In this document: positions 2,659 to 64,000 of the stretch, one piece after another
How the letters are laid out: each line of letters starts with the position of its first letter
Numbering within the stretch: the first letter of the stretch is position 1
From: Eledone cirrhosa
Taxonomy: Eukaryota
Direction: 5' to 3'
DNA length: 64,000 bases
NCBI GenBank assembly: GCA_964016885.1
Contig: OZ024742.1
Span: forward strand, 308,202,001-308,266,000
Position numbers and translations under genes: made by a program
Notes under the pieces: generated by a model
Told to the model about the DNA's origin: nothing
Seen by the model: the letters and a program-made list of their open reading frames with translations, nothing else
Database searches by the model: none

Positions 2659-2810
2659 ATAATTGTTTCTACTTATGGCACAAGACCAGCAATTACCCAG
2701 TGCATTCCTGGGACTTTATTTTATCGACCCCGTAAGGATGAAAGGCAAAGTTAACCTCGGCGGGATTTGAACTCAGTCCGTAAAGGGACTGAGTTCAAAT
2801 CCCGTCGAGG
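2659..2810 (-). mobile_element. tRNA-derived SINE (family A), 5'-truncated with fold-back 5' end
   Basis: Matches the other family A copies (tail tagaaacaattatt, core gcctttcatccttacggggtcgataaaataaag, B box gagttcaaatcc); 14-bp TSD gaatgcgatattaa at 2645-2658 and 2816-2829. Confidence 0.9.
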
Positions 2811-6694: not shown

Positions 6695-7089
6695 GTAGAC
6701 GCTTCAGTAGATCCGTAGAAAACTGGTGAGGGGTACGAATGTCAGCACTCCTTGCTAGAGCAGAGTGTATAAAATAAGAACAAAGTGGAGGTGTTACATT
6801 AAGACATTTATTGATCAATAATTTCTTAATGTATATATATATATATATGTATATATATGCGTGTATGTTTGTGTGTACGACAAGAAGCTCCCACGAAACA
6901 CGCCACATAATATGGTAGTGAGTTATTTGACGTAATATCCACACGAAACTGAAGTATCTGCATTTGATACTGATATAACTGAATATATATAAACCTGTCC
7001 CACGGACCGAGTGATCTAAATCCTTGGATATTTATACAACCCTATTACTACAACATATATATACAAATAATGGCTACATCTTGGTTCAA

Positions 7090-7430
7090 TATTTACACAT
7101 CCCTTGTTAGTTTTCTCACACATCGGTGGGAGGAATGACATTTTCGGCCCTGGCAAGGACCCTAAATTTCTTTCGCATAAGCAGCTGTGATAGAAACAAG
7201 TAAAAGCCATACTCACTCATTGTATGTGAAAGCTGTTTAATATGGCACTGACCAATCCCAATCTCTGAATAACGGTGAGAGGTATGAAAAAAGCAGGACA
7301 TCATTGACTACCATCGAGTCGCAGGTTTTGCCTCACAGTTTTTCTGGCCCTAGAATGATGCCCTGAAAAGAACAATGTGTCTCACACTCGCGGTGGGCTA
7401 ACCGCGTGCTCGTGCAGCAAACCGAATATT
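7090..7430 (-). mobile_element. Possible degraded Tc1/mariner transposase N-terminal fragment
   Basis: Minus-strand peptide pieces (QGIILGPEKL, HRYSEIGIGQCHIK, MSEYGFY, KKFRVL) loosely follow the GRPRK/HTH layout of Tc1 transposases; frameshifted, no TIRs seen. Confidence 0.25.
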
Positions 7431-8024
7431 TCCAGGTTTCTAAGCACACACACACACACACACACAAGCACACACACACACACTCACGCACACACACACA
7501 CATACACACAAACACACTTACACTCATACACTCATATATATATATATATATATTGCATTAATTTGTGTAATCAATGATAATTATATTTTCCCGCACCACT
7601 CAATGTTTCACTAAAAAATCTGAAATATATTCCATAAAACATTGAAAACGAGGTCATTATCTCCGTGTCTCATCGATACTGAAACCGTACAACTTTATGA
7701 CAACATTTCATCCGATAATTGATTTGCAGCTAGTATATGCCGATGGCATTCAGTCACCAAACTACTAGGCTGGATTCTATGAATAACATCTCCATAGGCG
7801 ATCAGACAAGTGTTTCTATTAAAATCAGAGACAAGAACACTTAACAGCAGCTCATGTGATACAGCCAACAGCTATAAGGCAAGTATGTTAAAAGGGTTTG
7901 GTGGATTTGTGACATAGTTACAAATTACAGACCAAAACACAAATTCAGGCAGCATATTAATCTTAGTTTCTACACGAGTGCCAAAATAAATACATTGTGA
8001 CGATAATTGAATAAATCTCTTTGA

Positions 8025-9837: not shown

Positions 9838-9875
<38 letters not shown>

Positions 9876-9922
9876 TCAGTGATATTAAATAAATGGAAAC
9901 TATATTTATAAAACCATATTCA

Positions 9923-9979
9923 TTCTATTATATATATTTCAAGGGTACCAAAACTTTGGTACGCTTTCATCAGATAAAA
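9923..9979 (-). ncRNA. Type I minimal hammerhead ribozyme
   Basis: Minus strand reads ttttat-CTGATGA-aagcgtaccaaa gt tttggtaccctt-GAAA-tatata-TA-atagaa: intact core, long helix II, short palindromic helix III, AUA cleavage triplet, helix I ttttat/atagaa. Confidence 0.8.
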
Positions 9980-10118
9980 TACAAAGTTTGTTTGATGAAT
10001 TTTGACATAACCAAGAAAAGATACCTTAACGGTTCAAGTTTTTCTTGGATAGTGAAAAACTTGAACCGTTAAGGTATCTTTTCTTGGTTATGTCAAAATG
10101 TATGAAACAAACTTTGTA

Positions 10119-10175
10119 TTTTATCTGATAAAAGCGTACCAAAGTTTTGGTACCCTTGAAATATATATAATAGAA
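10119..10175 (+). ncRNA. Hammerhead ribozyme copy with G8>A core substitution
   Basis: Mirror copy in the right palindrome arm; the core reads CTGATAA instead of CTGATGA. Confidence 0.6.
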
Positions 10176-10304
10176 TGAATATGGTTTTATAAATATAGTT
10201 TCCATTTATTTAATATCATTGAATATTATACCCCAGAAAACTTGTCAGTTATAAACGTTTATATTTGTTGAATTACCAACAAATTGAATATCCCTTTTGC
10301 TTAT

Positions 10305-20035: not shown

Positions 20036-21729
20036 TATGTCACAGCCGGCAATAAGGAGTACTCATATATAGGTGCGACATCCACTACGTTTAGGGAGCG
20101 CTGGTATAACCACAGAAGCTCCTTCAAACATAGATCGAAACGACCCCAAACAAAACTGGCCGATCTGATCTGGGACCTCAAGGACAGGAATATTGAACCC
20201 CGGATTTTGTGGCCAGTAAAAAGACGCGTGGCATACATCCCCAGTGACAGAAACCACTGCAGATTATGCCTAACTGAGGCGGCGGAAATAATTAAACTTG
20301 ATTCCGCCATAAACTATAGGTAGGACATAATTGTCAATAGCAGACACACTAGGATGCACACCTTTTCTGCACAAACTTTCGCGGGAGAACCACGCACTAA
20401 CCATGACTCACCATAATAATAACCACAGCTGCCCCGTATCACCATCGCCCATCTCAACGAACTTTAATTCTAATCTAACTTCACTTTATCTTATTTCATT
20501 GCATTGAATTTAACCATATGTAAGCCCGTATTTTGTATATCATGCCGCATACATAACCCACACCAAAAATCACACTAACATGACACACCATATTAATAAC
20601 CACCTATACCTCGTCTCAACATCGCCCACCTCAATGAACTTATTGTATTGTACTCCATGTAAACATTTCTAAGCCCGCATTTGTATATCATGCCGCACAC
20701 ATCACCATCACCACCACCAAAATTCACATCAACATACACACCTCATCGTTGCAACATCGTATTAGATCGATATCCTATGATACGTTCTACCTTGCAATCC
20801 ACAATGACAAGGGACCTTCAATGTCGATCATATCACACCATCGCCACCACCATCACACCACACATAGTCATATGCCTACCATACACGCCTACAACCTCAT
20901 CCCCCCCATGTTCCCTCTATCTACCCTAACCTACAACCCCACGCTAAATTCGACCCTGTAATTGTACTGTCGCACGCTCACACAACCACCGCCACCACTA
21001 GATACATCCACATACTTCAACAATCATTATCATTACATCATCAACACATATCATCCCTCGCTCCCAGATCGACTGTATTATATATCCCCCACCCCCCGTC
21101 TGTCTACCCTATAACACACTGTAACCTCTGATCATGTAATCATCTTGTCGAACATATCACCCCAGCACCACCACCATCACCATGTCCACAACACACATCG
21201 CCGTACGTCCATAAACGCTTCTCCCCCGCGTTCCCTATGTCACCTTTTAACCGGTATTCGATCCGGTATATATATTTTTGTCCATCACAACTCCTCCACC
21301 ACCACCACAAAACACAACTCCATACTTCATCAACACCGACAACACATACTTCCACTCCCCAACCAACAATAGTGTATGTGTCTGTGTGTAAGTATTTTTA
21401 CACATATGGGCGTTTAATTGTGCGTGCGTGTACGCATATTTATATGTATGTGTGTGTGTGTGAGTGAACACATGTGCATGCATATTTCTATGTGTGTGTA
21501 TATATATATCTGTATATATGTATCTATGTGTATGCGTATGTGTATGTGTGTGTATATATGTATGTGTATGTATGTGTGTATGTGTACGTCTACATGTATG
21601 TATATGGATGAATCTGACTGTATGTGTAGGTGAGCTCATATATGTGCATGTATGTGTATATGTGCGTGTATGTGTGTGTTGTCTGTACATGTGTGTGTAT
21701 ATGTGCGTGTATGTGTGTGTTGTCTGTAC

Positions 21730-22760: not shown

Positions 22761-23035
22761 ATACGATGGCTGTCTAGTTGCTAGTTAAGTTGGGCTTAAA
22801 AATGGAATGAGAATAAGAAGAAAGGAAGAACGGGGGGGGGGGATCCACATCAGTTGTCTACTGGGAGTCTCAGATATTTCAACGCTTTAAAGACAATATA
22901 TCTACCCCCAGAGCGTACATATAACTGGGTAAGTTATTGGGAAAACGGAGGAGGGAGAGAAGGAAAATGGAAGGGAAAAGAGGAAAAGGGATAGAAAAGA
23001 GAAAACATGGTATATATATATATATATATATAGAA

Positions 23036-23420
23036 TATATTAACAAATGGAAACTATATTTATAAAACCTTATTTATTTCATTATACATATTTCAAGGGC
23101 CACCAGAGGACACTATGGTGCGCTTTCATCAGATAAAATATAATATACGTTAGTTTCATAAATAAATATTGATATACCCTTAAAAAGTGCAACCATTCTG
23201 GTTGGAATCTCCTGGATAGTGGAGTTATTAGATTTAGTGTTGGTTTATTATGCAAATTAGTGTTGGAAAGGTTTAAAAATAGTATATTTAAATTAAGCCG
23301 TTGGAATAGGGAAAACAAATATATATATATATTTACTCCAATAATTTGTTGAGTGCTTTATATCAGTTATAAAAATATTTTGCTTGTTGTATCCCAACAA
23401 ATTAAATATAACCTCTACAT
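23036..23420. mobile_element. Penelope pLTR-like element, same family as 9876-10305
   Basis: Shares aaatggaaactatatttataaaac and the tail cagttataaa...caacaaattaaatata; flanked by (TA)n/(TG)n. Confidence 0.75.
23077..23138 (-). ncRNA. Type I minimal hammerhead ribozyme
   Basis: ttttat-CTGATGA-aagcgcacca tagtgtcctc tggtggccctt-GAAA-tatgta-TA-atgaaa; core intact, and helices differ from the 9923-9979 copy while keeping pairing. Confidence 0.78.

Positions 23421-25486: not shown

Positions 25487-25520
<34 letters not shown>
25483..25520. repeat. (ATT)n array at the Dong 3' junction
   Basis: Direct reading. Confidence 0.95.
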
Positions 25521-26922
25521 GTTCTTTGAGTCTCAGTCATTGATGTTAGTTAACTGGAAAGTTTGTTGAAATGAATATCAAGCCACTACCTGTAGCCTCA
25601 GATATTCAGGACGTATCGGAGTGTTCTTGCTGTTCCCAGCAAGCATGCCTTTTGAAGTGTTCCAAAAGGCAGGGCGGGGCCAATTTCCTTTAACCATCCC
25701 TGGAAACATTTTGAGATAGTACCTAGTGCGCCTATGACAATCGGTACCACTTTGACTTCGTGGCAGTTCCAAATCCTTTTTACCTCCCACTTTAAGTCCT
25801 GGTATCGGTTAATTGTTTCCCTCTCCTTCTCTTGCACTCTCGTGTCGAATAGGCAGGCCACATCCACAATCAGGCACGATCTTTTTTCCTTGTCCAAAAC
25901 CACCAGGTCAGGTATATTGTGTTCCAGTTTCTTGTCCGTCTTTATCCTAAAATCCCATAGCACCTTCACCTGATCACTTTCTATCACAGACTCTGGCTTA
26001 TGCTCATACCACTTCTCAGAATGTGGTAAATTGTTTACTTACATAGGTGCCAGTGGATCACCCTGCCCACCACTTCGTGTCTCCAGCCTTTATAGTGAGT
26101 CTGGGCTAGGTGTTTACACTCGGATACAATGTGAGCCACAGTCTCCTCTCTCTCTCCACAGATCCTGCACAGTGGGCTATGCTCCTCCTTGTAAATATGG
26201 TGTTTCAGCCGCTTCGTTTTGAGGGCCTGCTCCTGCGCGCCATTAGCATTCCTTCTGTAGCCTTTTTAAGGTCTCCTCTTCTCAACCAGTTCCATGTCTG
26301 TGGATCTCTGAATTCCGTTTTCTCAAAGAAGGTACTATGAAGGTATTTTTCATGAAGGCTGCTCTTTCTCCTTGTTGTTATTTCCTCCTTGGACATCCCC
26401 TGGTCTATTGTCCTCTCCTTCAGTACAATTCTGAGCATTGACTCCTTACTATCGGTCACGTATTTGTGTAGGTTGTTTTTCTCCATCTGAACACAGTCCT
26501 CTATGCTGATAAGACCTCTTCCACCCTCAGATCTCCTTAATTAGAGTCTATCGACATCACTCCTCTTGTGGAACATGTTGTAGATAGTCAATATCTTCCT
26601 AGACTTCCTATCCATTTCTTTTTGTTCAGCAACATTCCATCTCAGAATTCCCGCACTGTACCTAATAATAGACACAGCTGGGGAATTTACTGCACTTATG
26701 GCATTCCTACTGTTCAGATGTGACTTTAATACGCTCCTTACTCTCCGAATGTATTCAGATCTTATCAATTCCTTCATCTTTTTGTTCTTGATGACACCAG
26801 CCTCCAGAATACCCAAATACTTGTATCCTTCTTCAGTGTCAATTTCCTTTATCATCTCACCTGTTAGTACCTGGATTCCGTTGCTTCTGCTCAATTTACC
26901 CCTCTTCATCACAAGGACTCCA
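25521..26922 (-). mobile_element. R4/Dong-clade non-LTR retrotransposon, 5'-truncated and disrupted
   Basis: YKYLGI, thumb RLxLRRSEGGRGL and restriction-like endonuclease VLWDFRIKTD..PDLVVLD..IVDVAC..K..YQDL..VVPIVIGALG; (TAA)n on both sides, the known Dong target type. Confidence 0.9.

Positions 26923-26977
<55 letters not shown>
26923..26977. repeat. (ATT)n array between the Dong and Tx1-like elements
   Basis: Direct reading. Confidence 0.97.
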
Positions 26978-27449
26978 GAATGCCATGGTTGATGGAAGCT
27001 CGGCTCTGTAAGGTATAGTAATTTTTAACCGCTATAACAATTGTAAATTGTTTAAAACTTGAACCAAATTGTAGATAAAAACACCTTCCTCCTCGTGAGA
27101 GGGGTCTTTCTGCCCGTTATTTGGCCCTTCGGGGTTAAATAACCGCTTATTGGTGCTTTGTGCCAAATATTCATTTCAAACCGTAAAAAAAACATGGCTA
27201 CAAAAAAGAATTTTCACAAGTCACTCCCACTCATTCCGTCTTCTTCTTCCTCAATCGTCACTATATCAAAAGAAGATTGTCTCTCTCCCACCCTTCTCTT
27301 TCGCAAGCGACGCCATTAAAGAAAAAGAAAAATATAGTTTCTGATAGCTTTCACCAAGAGTACGTGTATTCCGTGGAACATTTCTCCACGACGACGACAA
27401 CGACGAAAAATGTGTGCGGTAAATACGGAAAGCCATTTCATTCGTCTGA

Positions 27450-29205
27450 CGTCATGAAGAATAGCAGTAGCAGCCGTAATAACAGCAGCAGCATAAACAA
27501 CAACAGCAGCAGCAGAAACAGCAACAACAGCAGCAGCAGCAACAACAACAACAACCACAGCAACAGCGGAGGCGGCGGCGGTCGTAGTACCAGCAGCAAC
27601 AACAAAAGTAACAGCAGCTCTGACGATAACAACAACGACAACAAGAAAGAAAAACCAATCTGGAAACCATCCTTATAACAATTGAGGAATTACAGGAAGC
27701 AAAGAAGATGGTGACGAAAACCGGATACCGAGCTATCTGCAAGGCAGCCGAAACATTTTTCGAAACCTAACAGCACTGTACGGTCACGTTCCGTACAGTA
27801 AGCACAAAATCACGTAGCCACAGAGGCTCAAATACAAAAACCTTAGGGTCTGTGAGGCAGCGGAAAACGCATATCATCCGAGGCAAGAAATATGCCACCG
27901 TAGACGTACTTTTTGCCAAACACCAGGAGGCAAAGGCTCAATCCTTAGTGTCTCTAAGGAGCGAGGAAATGGTGTTGGTGCCCTCCTACTGCGGGCAAAA
28001 AAATTGTGACACGCCCCAGATGGTCCTTTCTTGGCTGGCCGTGTCTGTCCTCATCGAAATCGAGGACAAAACAACTGTACTGCAAGTACAGAAAAAAGTA
28101 CGAGAAGATTGGGTCGGCACCTCCATTGAGATGTTAATCCAAACCAACCAGCAACATCGAAGTTATCCCGGATGTGATAGACCTCGATAACGGCACTCAA
28201 CTGCCCATAAGTGTTGAGGGCAAACGCCCGAAATGCTTTCGCTGTGGATCGAAGACTCACCTCAGGGCCTTCTGCAATGAGAAGACCCTGAGAAAGGAGA
28301 AAACACCCCTCCTTCCGAAACCGGCTCCACTACTACTTGCAACAGGGCAGGCGGCAAGCAGGAAGGATAGGTCCGTGGCACCCATACCCACGCCACGGAA
28401 ATCAAGAACAGCAGCAGCAGTAGAAGTATTAAAAACAACAACAGTACTACTAACTGCAGCTGAAACAGAGACTCCACTGCAAACATCACCAACAACAACA
28501 AGTGAAAGAGTAGAGCTGGGACCCCTCCCCGACCTCACAGAATCAGACATGGAGTGTGAGGTGGGAGAGGATGGCAAAAGGTCGCAAGAAGGCACAAACG
28601 CAGAAGCAGCGCATCGTCGCCTTCGAAAAGGGAGGAAAGAAATGAAAAAAGGGTAAAGGCTACTGCAAAGAGACTTACAGCAGCAACACCACCAACACCA
28701 TCACCACCCACACTAGCACCACCATCACCAACGGCGGCAACCCCACCGCAAACAACAACAACACCTTCAACACCACCACCACAAGCACCAACATCGCAAA
28801 CACAACACAAAACACACACACCCTCAACAACGACAAGAAAATAGCAGAACCACACCCCACCCCCAGAAAAATAAATGCACAGCAATAAATACACACAACA
28901 AGAAAATAATGACTTACATAATTGAACACACAGATATTTCACAGCACGACTACATAATACCAGCACCAAGCAAAACACCAACGGACATAAGACTGGTAAG
29001 AATAGCACAGAAACAATAGACAAACATTAAAACGAAATTCCCCAACGCAGTTGGTGATTTCAGAGACCTAGGAGGGACACTCAACCGGAGATTATATTCG
29101 GATATACTCAAAGAACAGCCGACGACCAGACGAAGGGACGATTCAACGGTCCCTTCACCAGACGATCAAGTGAAAAGGGATGGAGAAATCTTCCTTTCTC
29201 TATGA
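27450..29205 (+). pseudogene. Tx1-like ORF1 (gag-like, zinc knuckle), disrupted
   Basis: Pieces VATEAQIQK..HIIRGKKYATVDVLF..MVLVPSYCGQK and RPKCFRCGSKTHLRAFC (CX2CX4HX4C); low-complexity P/T-rich tail; boundaries approximate. Confidence 0.75.
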
Positions 29206-29251
29206 GAAGTAAGGTAAGTGGTCTTTCCAATCTTTGCCACTCCATTTCAAC

Positions 29252-32200
29252 ATGACCTCACTCAGAATAGGCAGCATAAATGCGCGTGGCTTGGGGTCGT
29301 CATTGAAGCAGGGCCACCTGCTCAACGACCTCAGGTCACTAAACATAGATGTAGTGGCCATCAGCGAGACCAGAATCTCCGAAGCACGGGCCTTCGCACC
29401 GATCTTCGGCGGCTACGATGTGTACACATCTCCCAGCCGTCCTGGATCGGGGGGGGGGGGTTGCTGTGGTATTTCGGAGAGGTTTGGATCTCGCCATACG
29501 GGCCATCTTCCTGGACCCAGAAGGTAAGTTGGTGGTGCTGGACGTGACCAGCGGAGACGGGCAAGCTTTCAGGCTAGTGGCCGTCTATGACCCGACAGGA
29601 GCAGCGCGGCCTGGTTTCTTCCGGCGTCTGGATACCTTTCTTGGAACGTCCCACTCTTTAGTGTTAGTGGGCGACTGGAACGGGATCTTAGATGCACGCT
29701 GGGACTGTATGGGATTAGCGGATAGGGGAGGAGGGTGTAAGAAGGGGAGGAGGGTGCAAGAGTCTCACCAACCTGCTCAGGCGTTTTGAAATGTCTGAGA
29801 AGTACCGATTGGATTTCCCGAATGTGCTAATGTGGACTTGGACAAATCGCATAGGGTCATCCAGATCATATCTAGATAGAGTATTTTGTAGGGAAATAGA
29901 TAGGTCAAGCATAGTATGTCTACAATTCAAGATAGTCAGCTACACGGACCACAAATTCGTGATGTGTGTGCTTGACTTAGATAGGCTTCATAGACGAGGA
30001 CCCGGCTATTGGAAGCTAAACGCGTCCTTACCAGCGCGCAAGGCCTAGAGAGACCGGATTAGCGAACTAGTTAAGCGGGCGTTGACGGGGGCCATCGTCA
30101 ACAACAAGTGGTGGTTTGATCTGAAAAGAGCGATTAGAATAGAGTCCAGTAGATTTAGTAAGGCTTTAGTAATAGAGAAAAATAGAGCAGAGGGAGAACT
30201 AGTTAGAAAATTAGACGAGGCGCTTAGCGAAGGCACGCGACCGACGTACTTTCGGCGAAATTGGCCCTTGACCAATTCTTCAATGCAAAGCACGAACGCT
30301 GCGTTGTCAGAGCTAGGGTGCGTGCTTTCAGATACGAGGGGACGAAAGCCGTTCAATGGGCCCGAGTGGCGGAGGCGCGTCGTGGCAACAAAGCCACGAT
30401 CCGATCTTTGGTGGACCACGACGGGCGCATGCTACTCGATCCCGGGCAAATGTGTGAAGCTTTCCAGCGACACTTCGCCCAGCTGTTCGGGGGCAGCGGC
30501 GGGCCAAATCGAGGGATGGACTTTAGTGTCTACCTCGACGGACTGCCGCGGCTCTCGGCCAATGAGGCGGAGTGTTGCGAAAAGCCGATAACAGCCGCTG
30601 AAGTACGGGAGGCAATGACTGGCTGCACAAGGGGTAAATCGCCTGGTTTGGATGGTCTGCCCTATGAACTTTACGTACAGATGCCAGGCTTGTTCGGAGG
30701 CCTCTTGGCGGACGTCTACTGCAACTGGCAACTGAACGGGAGAATTCCCAGCTCTGTGACCCGAGGAGCTGTGGCGCTGCTGAGAAAGGATCCGAACAAG
30801 GGGGATAACATAGATAATTTCAGGCCCATAACTCTGCTAAACTCAGAGTTCAAGATTTTGGCCAAGGTGCTAGCAAAGAGGTTGGCGCTTGTCGTTGGTG
30901 GTCTGGTGGGAGAGGCGCAGACATGCGCCATTCCCGACAGATCTATCCACGACAACCTCCACCTCATGCGATACATCGTAGAGAGGGTAGCTAGGGAACC
31001 TGGCACGGGTGGGTCCTTGATCAATTTAGATCAGTCGAAAGCTTTCGATAGGGTCGACCATCGTTACCTAGCGGCAGTCCTGAGGGCGGCTGGCTTTGGG
31101 CCCGTTTTCATAGGCTGGATCGCTGCCATGCACAGCGACATCTGCTCTGTGGTGAGAGTGAACGGTCACCTTTCGGAACCATTCAACATCATGCGCTCGG
31201 TCCGCCAAGGATGTCCCCTCTCGTCCCTCTTGTACGTATTGACTCTCGAGCCATTACTACACAAACTGGAGACGTTGAGGGGGGGAGGGTCCCGCGCGAA
31301 CTAGGATGCGTAAGATCCGGGTCAGCATATGCGGACGATGTCACCGTAGTGGTGTCGAACGCCAAACACATCGAGGCGATCGGCACTACACTAAGAGAAT
31401 ACGAAGCGGTGACAGGAGCAATGATCAACCAAGAAAAGTCAGTGGACCTGCAGCTCAGCACCTGGAGAGGCAGGTCCATGCCGTCCAACAGCGTCGTCGG
31501 GCGCTGGACGAACGGACCGGTTAAATCGCTAGGGGTCTGGTTCGGTCCGGACCTCCAGACGGACAAAAACTGGGACAAGGTGACGAGCAGGGTAGCTTCT
31601 CTCACCCAGAAATGGGCGGAGAGGAAGCTATCCCTGAAAGGTCGAGTGGAGGTGGCCAACGCGTACATCGCGTCCGTCATCTACTACCGCCTGACCGTCG
31701 TACCTTGTCCTAAGCTCCGCCTGACTGCGCTGGAGCGTTTGCTCTTTCTCTTTTTGTGGAAGGGACGCGTTCCGATGGTCAAGCTGTCCATCTGCTGTCA
31801 ACACCCGTTACGTGGAGGGCTGGGCATGCCGTGGCTGATGATGCGCAGACACGCGCTCAGGCTACGACATCTCCACCTCTTCCAAGACGGTGATCAGGTG
31901 TGGTCGCCGTTTGCTGGACACGTCTTTCCCCAGCTCGTCTCCTTGACGGAGCTGCAGTCCTGGGTCAAGCGGATATCGAGTGGGAGCGCTTGGAGACTGG
32001 AATGTCTTCAGGCGCTCACAGCCCTCGACCAATCATGTAATGTGATTGGTGGAAACTCCACCTTGGCGTTCTATAGAGGATTAGTGGAGGGGAAGAGCGA
32101 CGACGTACTTGGAGAAACTCTAGGCGTCGACGAAAATCAACTAGCCAATCTCTTCGGAAGGACTTTCGGGCCGGGGCCTATGGACAACTTCCAGAAATCC

Positions 32201-32642
32201 CTGGCCTGGCTGTGCTACCGAGGAGCATTGCCAGTCCGGGACAAACTTTACAGGCATGGAGGTGCTGTCAGCCGGGCATGTCCTTCACGCTCTCGTCCAG
32301 TATCCGAGCATTGCTGACTTGTGGGTTTATGTCGGACACCTGCTGTCACGTGTAGGACGGATCCAGCTATCAGCTGAGTCCATCGTGAGGATTGCCCTGC
32401 CCTCCTCCTTTAGCCGGGAAGGGCAGGCAATTTTTATCTGTCTGGTGGCCATGGCGAAAGAGATAGTATGGTGGACACGTTTGAAAGGGCTGAAGACTAG
32501 CACTTACCTCTTCGGTGATGCCCTGATTAACTTTTTCAAATTTCATTTGGAAGTGCTCTCTTCCCAGGATTTTGTTGAAAGATGGGTGAGAGAAGCAAGT
32601 ATGGCCCGAGTGAATGGGCCTACTCTGAGTATGTGTCTTTAA
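29252..32642 (+). pseudogene. Tx1-like ORF2 (AP endonuclease + reverse transcriptase), frameshifted
   Basis: MTSLRIGSINARGL, ISET, LVGDWN, SYLDR, TDH, GYWKLN, KSPGLDG, FRPITLLN, DQSKAFDRV, VRQGCPLS, AYADD, GGLG, spread over several frames. Confidence 0.92.
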
Positions 32643-32886
32643 ATTAAAGGTGGAAAACTGGGAGAGGGCACTTGCCCTGGTGGTCAGGGTCACTGTGGCC
32701 TTTTAATGGGCTTTCTCCACAAATGTCCTTCGGAAATCTCCCCCTATTGGGGAATTTTTTATTGTTATTTTTATTACATCATCGGTTTTTTTTACACGCA
32801 GAAATGCCCATTTGTACCGTTCTGTATTGTCCTGTACTGTCCTTAATGTCTACTTTATTTAAACCCTTGTGGTTAATAAAGAAAGC

Positions 32887-32896
32887 ATTATCATTA

Positions 32897-32988
<92 letters not shown>
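32887..32988. repeat. (ATT)n tail/target array of the Tx1-like element
   Basis: Direct reading. Confidence 0.97.
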
Positions 32989-34049
32989 GGATGTCAGATT
33001 CAGCACACTTGTTATGCTTCATCTGTCGTTATTCATTATATTTGACTTGATGTTAAGTGGGATTTTCCAGATTCAGTACGGCGTTTTTACATATATGTGT
33101 GACATAAACATTTTGTATAAGACTACAAGTGATTATTTCATTAATTGGGATTCGTAAAAGAAAAGAATTATATTTTATGGACTTTTTCAATGTTGTCCAT
33201 GTTCGTTTAAATTTACAATGGCGTCTTTGAGACAGCAAAACAACATCTATCGAATGGGGAAATACAGGAATTTCAAGTAAAAGAAAGCAAGAAGACATAA
33301 ACTAGCGCGTTTTGCGGTTGGACATGAATATTTCGTATACGGCAGACTTCATGTTATTCAGAACAGAAAATGTATTGAGTAATTCTCAAAAGCTACGTGT
33401 AATAATTACAAAAGTAATAATTCTGAGGGGCAATATAACAGAAAATTCAGTTTTTACAAGTGTGGAAGCATGGCAATTTGCTGCCCCCCCCCCCCCCCCC
33501 CCGGAAAATTAGAACAGCAAAACGAACGCCGGGTAAATCTCTAGATGCAATCTAACAACAAGCACGAACTGGGAAAAGAGCGTGGTGGACAAAAGCAAGC
33601 AGCGTGCACTGCGAATCATCAAGAGCCAGTGTCCTCGTCTTCTGTCCCAGAGGCCATTGCCCCGAATGCCCCCTTCCTTACAATAAAAAAATATACCCAA
33701 TCATATTTTGACAACGAAAATTAAAGATAGGCCAAGTAGGCTGAGGGAAAGCTGCAAAGACAAAAGGAGGAGAAACCAAATAAGGGAGAAATGTGTAACG
33801 CTACCAGATACTAACATCAGAGTCGAAAACTACATATGCGCAGTCCTCCAAAATATGGCAAATCCTCAAAAAGGAAAACCAAGATGATCGGGCGCACAGG
33901 ATATTGTGAAGAAATACCCCAACGTCAAATATGCCCCCATATATAATAAGGCGTTAAGAGAAAATAATGCTAATTGATGCACAAAGGTCCAATTCGAAAA
34001 GTGGATGGTGAGTTTTCCATGGTTGTATATTAATTAAATTTCTTTTGGT

Positions 34050-35046: not shown

Positions 35047-35230
35047 ATAATTGTTTCTACTTTAGGCACAGGGCCAGCAAATTCCCAGTACATTACTGGT
35101 ACTTTATTTTATCGACCCCGTAATGATAAAAGGCAAAGTTAAACTCGGCGGGATTTGAACCCAGACTGTAAAGGGACGTAACTATGCTAGAAAGCATGGC
35201 GTCCAACCCTCTACCGATACTGCCATTTCA
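35047..35230 (-). mobile_element. SINE family A, near full length
   Basis: A box tggcagtatcggt, B box gggttcaaatcc, core and tail as in the other copies. Confidence 0.9.
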
Positions 35231-35844: not shown

Positions 35845-36152
35845 ATAAACAAGGGTCTGGTATGGTCTTGTAACTCCTGGTAGAGTCGTAGGGGTACCGT
35901 GTTGACATAAGGCGTTTCGTGGGCATTGTAAGCCTGGCAGAGCCCATCCCACTTCAGGTCTGAGTACAGCGGATTTCTTCCAGAGAGAGGAGATATTAGA
36001 CTGGTACTAGACTGGCACATTTTTATCGACCTCGAAAGGATGAAAGACAAAGATGACCCCAGCAGGATGTGATCTCAGAGAGTAGAGAGTCGGAACGGAT
36101 ACCATAAAACATTCTATCCCACGTTCTAACTACTCTGCCAATTCGCCGCCTA
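35845..36152 (-). mobile_element. Composite SINE (family B): related head and core with a distinct tail of about 140 bp
   Basis: Head ggcggcgaattggcag, core ctttcatcctttcgaggtcgataaa, tail ctctggaagaaatccgctgtactcagacctg...caggagttac shared with 46637-46985. Confidence 0.7.
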
Positions 36153-36496
36153 AACAAGAGTAACAACAACCACAACACATACATGTAAATAGACATGTCG
36201 AGTGAAGACAATGAAAAAGCAAAACAATTTTGGCTTTGCTCATGCTGACAGTTATTAATATTCTTTGAATATTGCCATGAGAAATGACTGACTTCTGGGT
36301 GATTTTAGTGGGTTCCTATGCGTGACCAATAACAAAGACAGTAATAACAGCATTGAACGTATTATTGGTTATTCCAATGTTTTTGAAATAACTAATATTG
36401 TTTCCTCAATTCCAGAAACCATTGTTTGCGAGAGTAAAACTGATTAATTATAGTCCGTCTAGCTTATCCCCCACCAAATCGGGATTTTGGCTTAAG

Positions 36497-36918
<422 letters not shown>

Positions 36919-36921
<3 letters not shown>

Positions 36922-37900
36922 AAAGAACGTATAATACACCCTATGTGCCACGAAAAATCAAAAACACAAACGTAGAATATCCTGCTATAATTCTGCATAC
37001 AACACCCTGAGCAAGGGTCATTTACCATCCAAATTATTGTCAATCCTAAGGGAAAACTTCCCACACACATATACCAGCAAATATTAAATACCTTTAACGT
37101 TAAACTGTCGTATGGTACTACATCTAACCTACACATGAGAATAAACGCATCTAACACTTCAAAGCTTAAGAATAATTTGGAACAGGCACATACTTCAACA
37201 ACAAGCACGGAAATTTAACCCTATCCCTTTTAACTCACCAACCTAGGAAACATAGACACTAATGTTAATACTGACACTAACGCAACTAGAGTAGTTACAG
37301 AACAGCATAACGTTGCATATCACCCTCCTATAGTTCCACTCGCTGTCCCCGATGAGGACACTAATACTGACAACAATAATAACAGCGCTAATAACAATCA
37401 GTATATACGGTGTAAAACAAACTAGATCTAGACAAGCAGTCGCAAATGAATACGCTATTGATATAATAGACACGAACCGAGCTGCCTCAGATCAATCTAC
37501 TTACCCAAAGTTCAACTGTAGAACTAAAGCAAACTACCCACTTAAAGAACATTGTCTAATTTCCAGTGTGTTATATAAATGTACGCTAGTTATGGAAGGC
37601 AAAACGCAAGTATACATAAGAGCAATTCCTTCAATATATTATTCCCACAAACACTCTTTCAAGCATAGTAAATTAGCCAGCACGACCACGTTAGCTGAGG
37701 CAATTACCAAATACAACCTCAAACATATTAGATATAATCTAGAATTGTATATCCTGAGAGAAAACGAAATCATATAACGGAGAACGAAGAGTGTGCCCGC
37801 TCTGCTCCCACGAATTCTTCCAATAATGACCGCTCGAAAACCACTTAAGAAGAAAGCATAAAATCATAAGAACCATAAAATCATAAGAACATATAGAATT
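36919..37900 (+). mobile_element. Penelope-like element fragment (RT thumb/linker to GIY-YIG), degraded
   Basis: RRISCYNSAYNTLSKGHLPSKLLSILRENFP..ILNTFNVKLSY and FNCRTKANYPLKEHCLISSVLYKCTL..VYI..HKHSFKH..TTLA match PLE motifs (WFNPPY..FP..VKxSY; CNC..CPL..C..VY). Confidence 0.75.
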
Positions 37901-38307
37901 CTACAAACCAGCATAGCCTAGGACCACTATAAATAAAATATTACCATGGTAATATATGCATGTCGAAGGAGAACCTATTTCCTTCCATCCACCTACCAGT
38001 TATGCTACTTTATAACTGTTACTCCCATGACGCCTATATAGGAATAACACAATTTTAATTATGTAACCCTCCAACTCTCATGGTTTACATTTAACATCCC
38101 GTTCTGTGCGCACCGGAGCGCTGTGAGGCCCGGACGGACTGCATAAACAGAAGCTAACTAGCTAATACATAGTCAATGAAAAAAGTACATAAGCATATTG
38201 GGGTACGGCATAAACACTGCCCTACGTGGGACATTACACTCACTTCCGGAGGGCACAAATATTTCCTATAATTTTACAATAATTTAACAAATAATTTAAC
38301 AAATAAT

Positions 38308-38469
38308 TGTTTCTACTTTAGGCACAAGGCCAGCAATTACCCAGTACATTACTGGTACTTTATTTTATCGACCCCGTAAGGATGAAAGGCAAAGTTAACC
38401 TCAGCGGGATTTGAACTCAGATCGTAAAGGGACGTAGCTATGCTGGAAAGCATGTCCGACCTTCTACCG
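38308..38469 (-). mobile_element. SINE family A, slightly 5'-truncated
   Basis: 18-bp TSD aataatttaacaaataat at 38290-38307 and 38470-38487. Confidence 0.92.
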
Positions 38470-39943
38470 AATAATTTAACAAATAATGAACCTACATAAA
38501 TCAAGACTATGAAATCCTTCAATCATATCAACAATTGTGTGCATTTGACAGTATATGTTGGAACCTACACGCCCGTGTGTACCATTATGTACCAATATGG
38601 CCGTCTGTAGAACTGCACACAAGAAAGGACTACCAAAAGCCAAGGATTGGCAGTAGCTTTTCCTCGATACAGCTGCTGTCTTCTTCTCGGCAACCTTATG
38701 CTCGCTTTTTCACCTTTGTGTTAACATCTCTGTAAATTAAATGTATGCACACATTCAAGCATCGACTCATCACCCATTTGTACCTATGTATTTAATTTCA
38801 CAACTGATGCTGCTTGTGTAACGGTAAACCGTGGTTCATAAGCATATTAGGGTACGCAGCTGAACTGTAAAATCAGGCAAAGTACACTGATATTCACCTA
38901 ATCCATAGGCACCCGGATGCATATATACCTATTGTGTGCATGTGTGTATTTATATATGCCTGCATGTGCGTTCTCGCACGCACATAGGAGCCTTTCCATC
39001 TAGTCTTGTGTATCTAGTATTTTATTTCTATAATGAAAAGAATATCATCTAACCGGGAAAGTGATTATCACAAATTTTGAGAATATACAAACAATTTTCT
39101 CTCATCTCTTTATCTCACACTTTCTCCAATTCTATTTCTGGCTGCCTTCCAATCTTGACTCTGGTCCTCTCTCCTCCATTCTATGTACGCCTCTCTTCCT
39201 TTCTCCCTGCCTTTTATTACCTTTGTCAAAAGAGAAGCCGACATACAATATTTCCTTAGTAAATACAACGCAACTCAAATGCATGTTTTGTGTGACACCT
39301 CCTTAAACACGACAGACAGTTTTACTGTGATTACACAAGAAATGTTGTTGACACTGAAGCTACTGCTCTTAACTTTGGTATACTTGCATTAAAAAGAATA
39401 CACAACTGACACATCTCCATGGAAAATTAAATGAACAGCCGTTGACCAATTTTTTTCTTTTAGGCTTCAAATGCAACCTGCTGGCATTTATGTAATAACG
39501 TGTATGGCAGTATTAGAATTCTCATAAACATACAGCGGCAGTTGTCTTAGCAAGACCAGTCACCAAACTATATTTTACGTTTTAGTTTGTTTAGTGCGAC
39601 ATTACTGAATCAATATTTTTACAGTCTTACCGCAATATCATCGATTCCTTTCTAAACAACTTTACAGCATAAGTAACGTTATAAGGATTCATAAATATTC
39701 AAAGTGATCAACTCCTAAGTTCACTCATTGTGTCTCGTCTACTAAACATTCCAATTTGGATTTTGCATGTAATTTAAAGCGTGGACTGACATTCATCATA
39801 TTTTAGTGAGTCTACAGCCCTGTTTTTTTTTTCATACATATGATATAATACCATGGGAACGGCTCAAATATGACATCTTTATGTTCAGAATATTATTAAA
39901 ATTCAGCTGAATATCAAAACCAAACATGAGAACTATACATTAT

Positions 39944-40128
39944 GGTGGATTGGCAGTATCGGTAGAGGGTCGGACGCCATGCTTTCCAGCATAGTTACGT
40001 CCATTTACGATCTGAGTTCAAATCCTTCCGAGGTTGACTTTGCCTTTTATCCTTACGGGGTCGATAAAATATAGTACCAGTAATGCACTGGTTAATTGCT
40101 GGCCTTGTGCCTAAAGTAGAAACAATTA
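39944..40128 (+). mobile_element. SINE family A, near full length
   Basis: A box tggcagtatcggt, B box gagttcaaatcc, core, tail ccttgtgcctaaagtagaaacaattatt. Confidence 0.92.
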
Positions 40129-42832: not shown

Positions 42833-43016
42833 TGTTTCTACTTTAGGCACAAGGCCAGCAATTACCCAGTGCATTACTGGTACTTTATTTTATCGACCCC
42901 GTAAGGATGAAAGGCAAAGTTAACCTCGGCGGGAATTGAACTCAGATCGTAAAGGGACGTAACTATGCTGGAAAGCATAATCCAACCCTCTACCGATACT
43001 GCCAATTCACCGCCCT
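42833..43016 (-). mobile_element. SINE family A, full length
   Basis: Complete head gggcggtgaattggcagtatcggt; 13-bp TSD taggtaacataat (42820-42832) / taggtaaaataat (43017-43029). Confidence 0.93.
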
Positions 43017-46385: not shown

Positions 46386-46636
46386 TTTACCATCATAACG
46401 ACACATTTTTTGTATCTAGCTTTAATTCATATTTCAATAGATTATAAGCCTCTTTCTGAACATCTGTCAAGTAAAATGAATATTCTCATAAACAGAACAA
46501 TTATTTCCTTGCTATGATTATAATGTGTAGGTTTAACTATTTATGTTAATTTTCCTAACAATTTTCATTCCTGTGTAACCTGATCTGATTATCTGCGATG
46601 TATCAAGTAGTTTTGTAACGGTGTCTAGATATGTGT

Positions 46637-46985
46637 AGGCGGCGAATTGGCAGGAGGATCGTTACAACGTTGGATAGAATGCTTTATGGTATTCGTTTCA
46701 GCTCTCTGTTCTCTGAGTTTAAATCCCACAGAGATCAAATTTGCCTTTCATCCTTTCGGGGTCGATAAGAAAAAGTACCAGTTTAATACGTGGGTCGATT
46801 CTTCCTCTACATCTCTTTCTCGTTTCCTCTCTCTCACTTTCTATCTTTCTCTGGAAGAAATCTGCTGTACTCAGACCTGGAGAGGTATGGTCTCCGCCAG
46901 GCTTAAAATACCCGAGAAATGCCGTATGTCAATACGGCGCCCCCACGTTTATATCAGGAGTTACGGGACCATACATACTATATAA
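46637..46985 (+). mobile_element. Composite SINE (family B)
   Basis: Head ggcggcgaattggcag, B-box-like gagtttaaatcc, core gcctttcatcctttcggggtcgataa, tail shared with 35845-36000. Confidence 0.75.
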
Positions 46986-47825: not shown

Positions 47826-47896
47826 ACGAGGTCGATAAAATAAAGTACCAGTGATACACTGGAATAATTGCTGGCTTTGTGCCAAAAGTAGAAACA
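47826..47896 (+). mobile_element. SINE family A 3' fragment
   Basis: End of core plus tail; flanked by attattatgga (47815-47825 and 47897-47907). Confidence 0.85.
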
Positions 47897-47907
47897 ATTA
47901 TTATGGA

Positions 47908-48095
47908 GGGCAGTGGATTGGCAGTATCGGTAGAGGGTCGGACGATATGCTTTGACGCATAGAGTTACGGCCCTTGCCATTATGAGTTCGAATCCCGCTG
48001 AGGTTAACTTTGCCTTTCATCCTTACGGGGTCGATAAAATAAAGTACCAGTAATGCACTGGGTAATTGCTGGTCTTGCGCCAAAAAGTAGAAACA
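47908..48095 (+). mobile_element. SINE family A, full length, inserted at the tail of the previous copy
   Basis: A and B boxes, core, tail; TSD attattatggaggg at 47897-47910 and 48096-48109. Confidence 0.92.
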
Positions 48096-48712
48096 ATTAT
48101 TATGGAGGGATGGATCCTTCAGGTGTTATCAACACTACAACCACACCAGCCCCAAACAATACAACTAAAACATCAACCATCAAAAATCTCTCGAAACTAT
48201 AGCATCAACCTTAGCAGCAAATTCATCGATATCAGAAACATTAACAACATATGTAGCTCGAAAAACCGAGAGGCTAAACCCCATAACCATGGAAACGACA
48301 ACATCCAAAAGTGTGCCACACCCTTATTTCGAACAACAACACCAACAACAAACGAACATATCAATTACCCAATCACCCCCTTCTTCTTCGATACTTTAAC
48401 ATCGGAACGAAAGATCAAAAACATATCCAGCAACATATAACCATCTCCCAATAATTTTGGTTGACAAATAGAGCACATAGCACACACTTATTGTCAGAAG
48501 AAAAAATTATATAACAAAACATATATTACTTCAAAACGATGAAGCGCATGCTAGGACAACTGTTAAATTAGAAGTTAAAATTTATTACAAGCTCAGAAGC
48601 TCATCTGGTCCGTGTTTAATCTGGTTTCATTGGTCTTAAGTGACTAAGAATATAAGACTTCGCCCAGACAGATTAACTTCCTAGCTACTGTGTTTATTAA
48701 TTTTATGAATGC

Positions 48713-53137: not shown

Positions 53138-53278
53138 GAGTTACGTCCATTTATGATCTCAGTTCAAATCCCGCCGAGGTTAACTTTGCCTTTCATCCTT
53201 ACGGGGTCGATAAAATAAAGCACCAGTAATACACTGGGATAATTGCTGTCCTTGTGCCAAATGTAGAAACAATTATTA
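53138..53278 (+). mobile_element. SINE family A, 5'-truncated
   Basis: B box, core and tail tagaaacaattatt. Confidence 0.9.
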
Positions 53279-57404: not shown

Positions 57405-57592
57405 ATAGCAATCGTCATTGTTAACGATATGTTCTGTCTCTTTACGTTTTGAGTTGAAATTCTGACGACAGCAACATTTCCGTTCATCCTTCTGGGGTCG
57501 ATAAAATAAAATACCAGTCAAGTACTGGTTCAATTTAATTTTTTTTCCCCATCTTCCAAATTGCTGGCCTTGTGCCTAAATTAAAATAATCA
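57405..57592 (+). mobile_element. Older SINE related to family A
   Basis: gagttgaaattc, ttcatccttctggggtcgataaaataaataccag, tail ttgctggccttgtgcctaaa. Confidence 0.75.
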
Positions 57593-57659
57593 TATAAAAG
57601 GTGAGTGAGGGCATATTTTTTTAATAGTATTTGTATTGTTTTGTTATTTTCTTCTTTCC

Positions 57660-58300
57660 GGAGCTCTAGCATGGCTTCCACAAGTCCTCGGAGACCGGCG
57701 AGATGAAATAGGCCAAGGCTTCTCTCGAACAGCTGAACGCAGAAATGACAAGTAGCATACAGAGACGTTTAGAGTGAGGCTATCATCGACTTAGTGTTTA
57801 GGAGAAAGATTTAGAGTGAACAATATATGCATGGCGGGAAACGGAGAGGCGAATGCATGTGGGGTGTTGTCGAAGTATTGAGGAACAACTGCTAAATTAG
57901 GCGAATAGAAAAAGTAGATATAACCTCAGTGTGTCAGATTTGGGAGCGAGCTTCTTGATGCAAATCAATTGAGTAGATTAGATGCAGAGTTGATTAGATG
58001 CAGATGCTGGTGTGTTTAGCAGCAACACTATCAAGATGTGGGCCAATCTTTGCTATGTTAATGTACGTTTTCTAGGAAACAACCTCAGTAACGCAGAAAT
58101 CAAGAGTGTTTAACAGTCTCATTGGATTCTGGGCTGTTCATATCTAGTGTTAGAACATTGAAATTCGTATACTGGTCATATGTATGTATGCCCCGTTACT
58201 CCAGGTAGAGATGTCAGAAAATAATCGATTCCTTCCAGCAAATAAGAAATAGAGGTGGGTGAGAGACAACTGGGAGTGAGATATAGAGGAAGAATTAATC
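57660..58300 (-). mobile_element. Possible very degraded CR1-type LINE 3' fragment
   Basis: Weak similarity in layout to 53640-54165 (e.g. tctactttttctattcgccta); many indels. Confidence 0.3.
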
Positions 58301-58309
58301 CTAGTATTG

Positions 58310-58450
58310 AATTGTTACTCTCTGATCGATCTCGAAAGAATAAAAATCAAAGTTTTCTTCGGGGGAATTTGAACACAGAGAATGCAGGAGCAGGAACGAA
58401 TAAGGTAAATCTTTCTATCTGACGTTGTAACGAACGTGCCAATTCGCCGT
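58310..58450 (-). mobile_element. Older SINE related to families A/B
   Basis: Head acggcgaattggcac, B box gtgttcaaattcc, core attctttcgagatcgat. Confidence 0.7.
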
Positions 58451-58859: not shown

Positions 58860-59677
58860 GATATGCATTGCAGAATTGAGTAGAACTATCTTTGTTTACG
58901 CACGATAAAGATTTGGGGTGAAATAATTTCTCTAAATAGTTATTAGAATGTCAGGAAAACTATTTATAAGGTCGCGAAAGTCTCTTTAACGTATTGATTT
59001 CATTTCAAATTCAGTAATTTTATTATGTAATCAAATAATCAATAGCATGATAGTCACGCTGTTAACTATCTTAACCGTCTAAATCATTGATTCATTCTAA
59101 CACGTGGAATATATATATTTCTGTGTGCATGTGTGAGGGTATACAAGTGTGTATGTGTGTGTACTTGATTTTGTGTGTACAGAACGGGCAAGGATATTGA
59201 ACTACAGAACTGAAATAGTTTAGTGACCAAAGCCCATTCACTACAACTATACACACACCCACACTAATTATACATGTCCTAAGGCAGACCAATTTTAGTT
59301 TAAATTCTAATAAATGTTTTTAACTTCATGTTAAAATACTCCTGGAGAAGACATTCCGCAAGTGGTAAACTTTCTCGATCAAGACATATATTTATGCATA
59401 TCTCTTGTAAGCAGATTCAACCCTGAGTGATAAATTAGAATATGGTTGAGAATTAAATTTCTCATAACCTCCAAGTTCGAAATGAAATTCAGGGCGAAGC
59501 TATGACCCGAAATATTTCTCCCTTAGTATCACTATACAAAGGCGACTGATTTATGGCCTATATCAGTCGTATGTATGTATATATGTATGTATATATGTAT
59601 TCGTGTATATATGTATGTATGTATATATGTATGTATGTATGCGTGTATTTATGTATGCGTGTTTGTAGGTATGTATG

Positions 59678-60005
59678 TTCTTCTGGTTTTATAATTACAC
59701 GAAGTTTTACTAATAGAGAGAGAGTCGGTTTCTAACATAGACACAGGACTCTCTCATTGGAATTTTCACAACATCAACTAGGTAGATATGTACACATACA
59801 ATAACATCCATATCTAATTGCATGTGTAGATATGGACGTTATTGTATGTGTGGATGTGTATGTTTTGAGTTGTATGTGTGCATGTATATATGCTTTGCAT
59901 CTGTACATATGTATATGCAGTTATTAAATGCAAAATTTCTGGAAAGTTTTACATATTTTTACTGCTCCATTAATGGATTGTACTTGTAATTTCCTAACTA
60001 GTTGT
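59678..60005 (-). mobile_element. Second, 5'-truncated 3' end of the R4-like element
   Basis: Diverged copy of 60032-60325 (ORF end and 3' UTR); bounded by (TATG)n at 59570-59677 and 60005-60031. Confidence 0.88.
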
Positions 60006-60031
60006 ATGTATGTATGTTCATTTTATGTATG

Positions 60032-63000: not shown

Positions 63001-63960
63001 TGTTTTCGTAGGTCAGCAATCTATTTTTATATTTTAGTTATATATGATGGTATTTTTGGTGGTGTTCTGTTCTTGTGAATATCTCTACTATCACCAAGAT
63101 AATGCTTCACTGTCGTCGTTAAGGCATATAAACAGGCGTTGATTTGCCAAAATGTTGGGGTTTTTATCCGTCGTAAATATTCATCCCCTATTTCGTCAAT
63201 AACACGTAATATTTCATTATTTGGTTTTTTATTAAACATTGTCATTTTAATACGTTCAGCAAGAGAGATATTTATACATGAATTTATTTCTCTCTGGAAG
63301 ATTTCGTTGCGGGAAAATTTCAATTGTTTATACTTTTGATTATCATTATCGATAGTGTTTTCCACAACAGTCGAGGTAGACTCGGGTGGTACACGTGGTG
63401 TCAGTTTCTTCGATTATTATTATTATCGATAGTGTTTTCCCGAACATTCGAGGTAGATTTAGATGGTACAGGTGGTGTCAACTTTCTTACAGGCATAGTT
63501 GTTTCAAGGCACTGTTCGACCTGGCTTCTAGGAAGTCTAGTAGTATGGCGACCTGTAGCACGTGTTGTTGATAACATGTTTGTTGTGGGGGACTTACAAT
63601 TAATAATATTTATCTTATTTCTACGTTCAACAAACGTCGCTTGTTGGCGTAATTGTTTCGCTGTGAAATAATTTAGTTCTGGGTGTATTTCGTCCCAGTG
63701 TAGCTTCATTCTGTTCATATAGCCAATGGAGGGATTGTTTTTTGCCATTTTATAACAATTAAATAAATCATCATTAAGTTCGCAACTCCAAGAGAAATGC
63801 GTTTTGTAGTTTCGGTTTCTTCTGTAGCTACAACTGAATAAAATTTGATTACCTTCCTTGTTAGTTGTCTTCGGTACTTCCTTAATTTTGTTGTTGATGT
63901 TGTGTTCAGCCATGCTGTTTGTAACAAATCCTTGTAAAATGAAAATTATGTATTTAGTCG
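60032..63960 (-). mobile_element. R4-clade RLE non-LTR retrotransposon, near full length, disrupted
   Basis: N-terminal WS.ELN.DL..CY..GYMNRM..HW..LRQQ, RT (NYRPIAC, WLDYRKAFDSVPH, GIFQGDSLS, FVDDLKLY, YRYLG), CRLC..E..H..SSC zinc knuckle, RHD and RLE region; many stops and frameshifts; 5' end may extend past the window. Confidence 0.92.
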
Positions 63961-64000
63961 GATATCTCTACGAATTCGAATAAAAAGTGTCTTCAGAAGA

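Follow-up and report, generated by a model that had tools for sequence, protein, structure and literature searches.

A 3' tail motif with a predicted hairpin, common to an abundant SINE and to Tx1-like LINEs of (ATT)n arrays in the octopus Eledone cirrhosa, suggests a Tx1-SINE partnership

The Tx1-like LINE of the window and its neighbours

The window analysed here is a stretch of 64,000 nucleotides from Eledone cirrhosa (assembly GCA_964016885.1, contig OZ024742.1, positions 308,202,001 to 308,266,000, forward strand). It carries a full-length but broken Tx1-like LINE (26978..32886, plus strand), a member of what we call family A. Its head adjoins an (ATT)18 array (26924..26977, plus strand) and its 3' end is followed by a second (ATT)n array (32887..32988, plus strand), which represents target and/or tail repeat. 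The frameshifted ORF1 remnant (27194..29250, plus strand, end approximate) is recognised from the sequence. It has no Pfam match and includes, in the frame 28138-28656, what we take to be a CCHC zinc-knuckle-like motif. The ORF2 remnant (29252..32642, plus strand), with endonuclease and reverse transcriptase regions, lies in at least six pieces identified by tblastn and matches the RVT_1 profile (E 8.7e-20). The element closes with a predicted hairpin, AACC-CTTGT-GGTT (32862..32874, plus strand), proposed from pair probabilities and compensatory changes across families, and then with a poly(A)-signal-like AATAAA and a terminal GAAA-nn (32875..32886, plus strand).

The reverse transcriptase of this copy shares 94-95% identity with that of locus L101, whose 1152-aa ORF2 is intact, and the head sequence of family A follows ATT runs at other loci too. 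At the 3' end, 25 of 30 family A copies, picked with a query stopping before the ATT, run directly into ATTAT and none into a run of A. The original prediction held that the target duplication of the LINE begins with attat. This was overstated: ATT is indeed present on both sides but, because the element sits between (ATT)18 and a second ATT array, the borders of a duplication are not delimitable. The window copy is dead, and a working partner of the SINE described below would be at least one intact sister family.

A 5'-truncated R4/Dong-like LINE (25521..26923, minus strand) occupies the same ATT array in the orientation opposite to the Tx1 copy; read in its own sense, it terminates in (AAT)n. 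The two form a stacked landing pad (25488-32988) within one (ATT)n array, and similar opposite-facing pairings recur at L007, L015, L019, L022 and other loci. A second R4/Dong-like LINE (60244-63967, minus strand) has a CATA-repeat end, a duplicated 3' segment (59644-60325) and, presumably, a restriction-like endonuclease motif. As candidate partners of the SINE, R4/Dong-like elements were rejected: although found in shared arrays, they are oppositely oriented and, read in their own sense, terminate in AAT or CATA. The window also includes a near-perfect 173-bp inverted repeat (9872-10226, 9 nt between the arms) with related sequence at 23011-23163, and two short frames (20040-20323 and 36684-37214) without Pfam match, which resemble remnants of a Penelope-type endonuclease and reverse transcriptase.

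Tx1 families in the genome

Several Tx1 families can be distinguished in the 3.0-Gb assembly, to which all genome-wide counts given here refer: family A (that of the window), families B and C, older D-like copies, and families ending in TATC arrays. Family B comprises 29 intact copies within 0.44% of their majority sequence, with an intact 1150-aa ORF2. In all 20 of these 29 for which the 5' side was retrieved, the element adjoins at least 4 ATT units (range 4-15). All 30 loci with an intact Tx1 ORF2 end in ATT. A Tx1 tail pattern, which misses family B, has 11,121 exact matches genome-wide and none for the reversed control. Sister families sit in (TATC)n arrays (L057-L058, L151, L263, L267, L288 and L289), one of them with a 1153-aa ORF2, and they keep the same hairpin layout. 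Head-to-tail Tx1 arrays with a spacing of about 5.8-6 kb are found, each copy lying in the ATT tail of the preceding one (L104/L112, L115/L123 and others). At L046 (about 7000-7870, minus strand), the Tx1 3' UTR holds six repeats of a segment of about 50 nt immediately upstream of the hairpin.

The ORF2 has the layout of a Tx1-type non-LTR retrotransposon, with an N-terminal AP endonuclease and an L1-type reverse transcriptase, and homologues of the Tx1-like ORF2 carry PF03372 and PF00078. The intact sister ORF2 (1150 aa) matches residues 7-858 of human L1 ORF2p (E 4e-57), far above R2. Its best named homologue is a 'Transposon TX1 149 kDa protein' of the coral Stylophora (304 bits), the human L1 match of 197 bits having been measured in another database. 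Argonauta supplies the closest named homologue of the LINE protein (74%), and in our reverse transcriptase tree the window family joins this homologue in a 100/100 clade. This tree, a check proposed with the original prediction, places the LINE apart from CR1 in a 19-row group with the Stylophora TX1 protein; being built without Xenopus Tx1L or L1 rows, it leaves Tx1 and L1 proper unsplit. The 'Tx1' label therefore rests on the homologue name, the layout and the target preference.

The SINE family

Two full-length SINE copies of the window are flanked by duplications starting with ATTAT: 42833..43016 (minus strand; 13 bp with one mismatch, near 42820) and 47911..48095 (plus strand; 14 bp, at 47897). 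The same start is found for the 5'-truncated, T-subtype copy at 38308..38470 (minus strand; about 17 bp, 38291-38307). The attat starts, in sense orientation, which had been noted at 38290, 42820 and 47897 are thus all present. A further 5'-truncated copy (47826..47896, plus strand; 11-bp duplication) stands in tandem with 47911..48095, and another (2664..2789, minus strand) has a duplication starting with ATTA. The copy at 39944..40124 (plus strand), which served as query, shows only a 5-bp duplication. The remaining copies are 35052..35230 (minus strand), the 5'-truncated 53139..53271 (plus strand) and a decayed long form, 57441..57593 (plus strand), with the same predicted hairpin. Older SINE-like repeats (35860-36156, 46632-46974 and 58227-58449) have the central SINE body in common and apparently different ends.

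The copy at 39944..40124 carries by eye what we take to be Pol III A- and B-box-like motifs; ARAGORN and Rfam gave no tRNA match for the SINE. Identity with a MetaSINE (66-bp Meta domain after the head) was considered and is unsupported, the body motif being absent from the supplement searched and unlike BivaMeta-SINE1 by eye. We found no published name for the SINE in the literature. Its tail has 134,745 exact matches genome-wide, with none for the reversed control. A minimal insertion of about 24 nt, starting at the hairpin and flanked by a 15-bp duplication that starts with ATTAT, is seen at L368 (about 1490-1545).

Extent and specificity of the shared 3' tail

The likeness at the origin of this study, an ungapped match of 20/28 between the LINE (32865-32892) and the SINE (38302-38329, minus strand), is confirmed; without the shared ATTAT it amounts to 15/22. 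Both elements do run into ATT instead of poly(A), as had been claimed: besides the LINE ends counted above, ATTAT comes immediately after 97 of 110 SINE copies, and AAAA after none. Another ATTAT count, 86/90, was set aside since 30 of those loci had been selected on ATT.

Compared over 22 nt with the majority of 78 SINE tails, Tx1 families A, B and C match at 14, 12 and 15 positions (shuffle p 0.0008, 0.003 and 0.0002), CR1 at 3, four RTE-type tails at 6-8 and five R4-type tails at 3-8 (all p >0.2), the length and the families having been picked after looking at the data. The LINE tails sampled are CR1, RTE-type, R4-type and Tx1 (L2, Hero and R2 not knowingly included), and the CR1, RTE and R4/Dong labels are our own assignments from protein motifs. 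A score of 17/22 for the majority of the TATC families was discarded because several families were mixed in it. The original prediction had been made to depend on three points, and it stands on each: none of the sampled RTE, CR1 or R4 tails matches the SINE better, the likeness persists in the family majorities (Tx1 12-15/22), and Tx1 tails beat shuffles (p <=0.003). With 5,026 other ATTAT sites of the genome as the null, a set in which unflagged decayed SINE tails are still present, the 14/22 of family A has p 0.002. When gaps are allowed over 75 nt, family B is the best of the three Tx1 families; one R4 tail reaches p 0.02 in the 75-nt global test. No likeness is seen 5' of about 27 nt, the long-form SINE included (upstream-only p 0.13-0.54). 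In 1.064 Mb of unselected DNA, 97 CTTGT..AAA..ATTA motifs belong to the SINE (86), to Tx1 (9) or to other sequences (2), none to CR1, RTE or R4.

Only 22-27 nt are common, and the length and families were chosen after the fact, so that chance or convergence of AT-rich ends lying before ATT repeats, with the true partner extinct or unknown, has to be considered. All Tx1 tails match, however, while those of no other clade do; loop, spacing and end register coincide, and the stems differ in a compensatory manner. We regard such a coincidence as very improbable.

Another candidate is an abundant and young CR1-type family (L071-L100, for example L076), which has an intact 945-aa ORF and ends in (ATT)n. 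Because of this family, an ATT ending alone is not diagnostic. CR1 and L2 are moreover the usual SINE partners named for molluscs in the available text of PMC4824008 and PMC11481361, and the O. vulgaris annotation, in the part available, counts 13 active CR1, 2 Hero and 1 R2 families, more than sampled here (PMC13282606). The SINE might accordingly be moved by this CR1, or by an unsampled CR1, L2, Hero or R2 element, its likeness to Tx1 being historical or fortuitous. Against this, the CR1 tail agrees at only 3/22 positions and none of the 17 CR1 copies examined, whose 5' ends are approximate, has a duplication longer than 9 nt. In addition, 163 SINE-type tails are preceded by four bases foreign to the SINE; of the 30 examined, 27 have a SINE body and 3 are bare tails; by blastx none lies at the end of a LINE ORF, and no LINE carrying the exact SINE tail appears among them, although this pattern would miss a donor with the same four upstream bases as the SINE. 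A CR1 or other unsampled driver is thus, in our view, quite unlikely. RTE types were rejected as partners, their ends being ATG/TGA-type repeats and their tails matching at 6-8/22. Some CR1 copies lie within minisatellites (L074, L076, L082, L086 and L096).

The LINE-SINE partnership as originally proposed is supported in part: the tail likeness is confirmed, but the window copy is broken and family A is only one of several equally good candidates. Since the CTTGT loop is also present in TATC-targeting Tx1 families, the tail does not name the partner family.

A predicted hairpin in the tails

All aligned Tx1 tails have the same order: stem, five-base loop, stem, AATAAA, GAAA-nn (GAAT in one) and the repeat. 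The stems are AACC/GGTT, GGCC/GGCC, TGCC/GGCA and TACC/GGTA, and the loops CTTGT, CCTGT, CTGGT, CTAGT and TTTAT. The SINE tail reads (T)GGC, CTTGT, GCC(A/T), six bases, GAAACA and ATT; AATAAA is absent, and the distance from loop to GAAA equals that of families A and C. The SINE hairpin may be read as that of family B minus one C-G pair. No Tx1 tail with the G-C second pair of the SINE was found, the genome-wide matches to the two patterns being SINEs in 13/13 and 6/6 cases, and a search for a Tx1 family with the exact SINE stem was likewise unsuccessful.

Across 12 tails, three of the four stem pairs change on both sides and 87.5% of the cells pair, compared with 70.2% after shuffling (0/500 shuffles as high); all slid controls are lower. 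The rows are hand-picked and related, and the three SINE rows among them count as one event. RNAalifold, unaided, finds three of the hairpin pairs. This apparently compensatory hairpin across the Tx1 radiation is the informative part of the tail, which the original prediction had missed.

The pair probability of the LINE hairpin in the window is 0.7-0.9 in contexts of 40-250 nt. Predictions are similar for families A and B (0.7-1.0) and depend on context for family E (0.2-0.8). For the SINE, a short context gives 0.86 for the A-subtype and 0.16 for the T-subtype, the younger one, whose stem has 3 bp; in the context of the whole element both fall to 0.03-0.08 and other pairings win. None of five tails folds better than its shuffles (z +0.2 to -1.6). 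Two whole SINE copies do fold better than shuffles (z -3.4 and -3.5). In the predicted folds of 47908-48101, the 5' head of the SINE pairs with the 3' tail region, hiding the hairpin.

These folds leave room for a simpler scheme, in which Tx1 moves the SINE with relaxed recognition that depends solely on the annealing of the AUU repeat to the primer, the hairpin being a remnant from around the poly(A) signal that came along when the tail was captured. It would fit with the missing hairpin in whole-SINE folds, with the weaker stem of the younger subtype (T 24, A 54 at the stem position) and with the position of the hairpin, which in all Tx1 tails immediately precedes AATAAA and could there serve 3' processing. 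However, the SINE keeps the hairpin (exact in 47 of 83 copies selected by their body) and its spacing despite the loss of AATAAA and a 7-nt spacer that varies among subtypes, and its stem change is compensatory. Relaxed recognition thus seems unlikely to us.

Insertion targets, duplications and ages

A duplication of at least 9 bp flanks 54 of 110 SINE copies, with a median of 15 bp, and 48 of these 54 begin with ATTAT; one mismatch was allowed in the calling, which may make the lengths 1-3 bp too high. In the other 56 copies no such duplication was seen near the aligned 5' end. The base preceding the duplication is C in 21/54 cases, against a background of 1,028/5,840, and C or T in 46/54. 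For Tx1, three truncated copies have duplications of 7, 8 and 12 bp, and 20 extra loci mostly gave no clear length. In the comparison of targets suggested with the original prediction, SINE and Tx1 thus agree in the ATTAT start and in orientation, whereas lengths are not comparable within arrays and the use of sites differs. SINE tails precede 96/4,968 short ATTAT sites and 4/50 long ATT arrays, Tx1 tails 3/4,968 and 4/50. A long array is therefore about 4 times as likely as a short site to follow a SINE and more than 100 times as likely to follow a Tx1 element, both ratios being inflated by repeats made from the tails themselves. This array bias could arise if Tx1 RNA had a longer AUU stretch between AAUAAA and the site of cleavage.

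A SINE in the same sense lies within 90 nt after 19 of 88 Tx1 tails, where an estimate from SINE density gives about 0.5%. At L018 (1909-1950) and L156, a 5'-truncated SINE follows a Tx1 3' end at a distance of 0-2 bases. These junctions could be template-switch chimeras or insertions exactly at the tail.

The divergence of the two SINE subtypes from their own majority is 3.2% (25 copies) and 6.1% (80 copies); that of Tx1-A is 2.9% over the last 70 nt (20 copies). SINE and Tx1 activity overlap in age, at 0-7% divergence, in small samples where the Tx1-B copies were selected for intactness.

A candidate mechanism

Taken together, we consider it likely that the SINE is copied by the ORF2 of (ATT)n-targeting Tx1 families, which would recognise the hairpin of the shared 22-nt motif and not poly(A). 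Target-primed reverse transcription (TPRT) is the established frame for such elements, and human L1 selects its RNA by the poly(A) tail. In the scheme we propose, the SINE would have captured its tail from an older Tx1 family, a step that we hold to be highly probable, and would then have lost AATAAA, because a Pol III transcript would not need it. The Pol III SINE RNA would be bound at the hairpin by Tx1 ORF2. That ORF2 binds the loop specifically while the stem need only pair is suggested by analogy with L2-clade LINEs and is slightly more probable than not. The Tx1 endonuclease would nick the strand opposite Y|ATTAT, the AUU repeat of the RNA would anneal to the freed primer, reverse transcription would begin at this repeat, and the duplication would result from a second nick some 15 bp further; this succession of driver steps appears quite probable. 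Because the cDNA would start at the repeat, no poly(A) would be copied even from Tx1 RNA bearing AATAAA.

Natural stem variants, two types of target and near-identical intact ORF2 sequences make this a system in which hairpin recognition, repeat annealing and endonuclease specificity may be separated, and one that could also be useful for site-directed retrotransposon tools.

Comparison with known systems

A 3' stem-loop followed by a short terminal repeat is also described for zebrafish ZfL2-1/ZfL2-2 and eel UnaL2 and, according to the text available, loop-specific recognition with exchangeable stems was demonstrated experimentally for the ZfL2 pair (PMC4176376). Those elements belong to the L2 clade and their recognition is experimentally shown, whereas the present hairpin is of Tx1 type and predicted only.

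Among Tx1 elements, Kibi (TC)n, Koshi (TTC)n and the crocodilian (TTCC)n/(TTTC)n families likewise insert in microsatellites; the targets here differ, being (ATT)n and, for sister families, (TATC)n, and SINE tail sharing is not described for the former in the part of PMC4494074 available. The crocodilian SINEU is likewise tied to a Tx1 element, Tx1-Mar, by target preference and age. It differs in its snRNA heads, poly(A) tails and Mariner target, with no shared 3' tail cited in the same text (PMC4494074).

In molluscs, CR1, CR1-Zenon, L2 and Nimb are the SINE partners named in the available text of PMC4824008 and PMC11481361, the word Tx1 being absent from both main texts. These pairs, like the present one with its candidate tRNA-type SINE, associate a tRNA-type SINE with a LINE-derived tail, but the shared tails are longer than here (35-61 bp common at 72-95%, PMC11481361). 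The 2026 annotation of O. vulgaris reports 13 active L1-Tx1 families and SINEs making up about 11.6% of the genome, in a main text that does not name the SINE partner or use the words 'partner' and 'tail' (PMC13282606). The accessible portions of PMC5786205, PMC9115989, PMC4758252 and PMC8967140 mention no Tx1 partner. In the literature as far as available, we found no animal Tx1-SINE shared tail; Repbase/SINEBase, Ohshima and Okada 1994, Kojima and Fujiwara 2004 and the supplement of PMC13282606 may contain one. The Tx1-SINE link would point to a driver for a major octopus SINE family.

The nearest parallels come from the L1 group, where shared tails are reported, in the literature surveyed, from plants and an alga only. 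The survey of Ohshima, in the part available, covers 58 pairs and assigns L1-clade tails to three of the SINEs, from maize/sorghum and Chlamydomonas (PMC3472496): ZmSINE2 and ZmSINE3 with LINE1-1_ZM, and SINEX-3_CR with L1-1_CR (PMC3472496, PMC3747384). As in Eledone, where the tRNA type of the SINE is putative and the hairpin predicted, they associate an L1-group LINE with a tRNA-type SINE through a common 3' end, which includes a hairpin with a conserved loop, a variable, compensatory stem and a conserved 3' flank. They differ in being L1 pairs of plants and an alga, whereas the present case is Tx1 and animal, in sharing about 50-80 nt with A or T endings, against 22-27 nt and (ATT)n here, and in that no microsatellite targeting is reported for them in the text available (PMC3472496, PMC3747384). 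A fuller reading may be offered only tentatively, as it is somewhat doubtful in its entirety: an animal lineage of the L1 group, Tx1, would recognise its RNA through a pentaloop hairpin at the 3' end and begin cDNA synthesis at an AUU repeat lying 5' of its own poly(A), would have diversified into families that target (ATT)n or (TATC)n and retain the hairpin, and would drive one of the most abundant octopus SINEs. If true, this would extend stringent recognition in the L1 group from plants and algae to animals. Ohshima proposed that such recognition is ancestral in the L1 group (PMC3472496), and an animal Tx1 case bears directly on this proposal.
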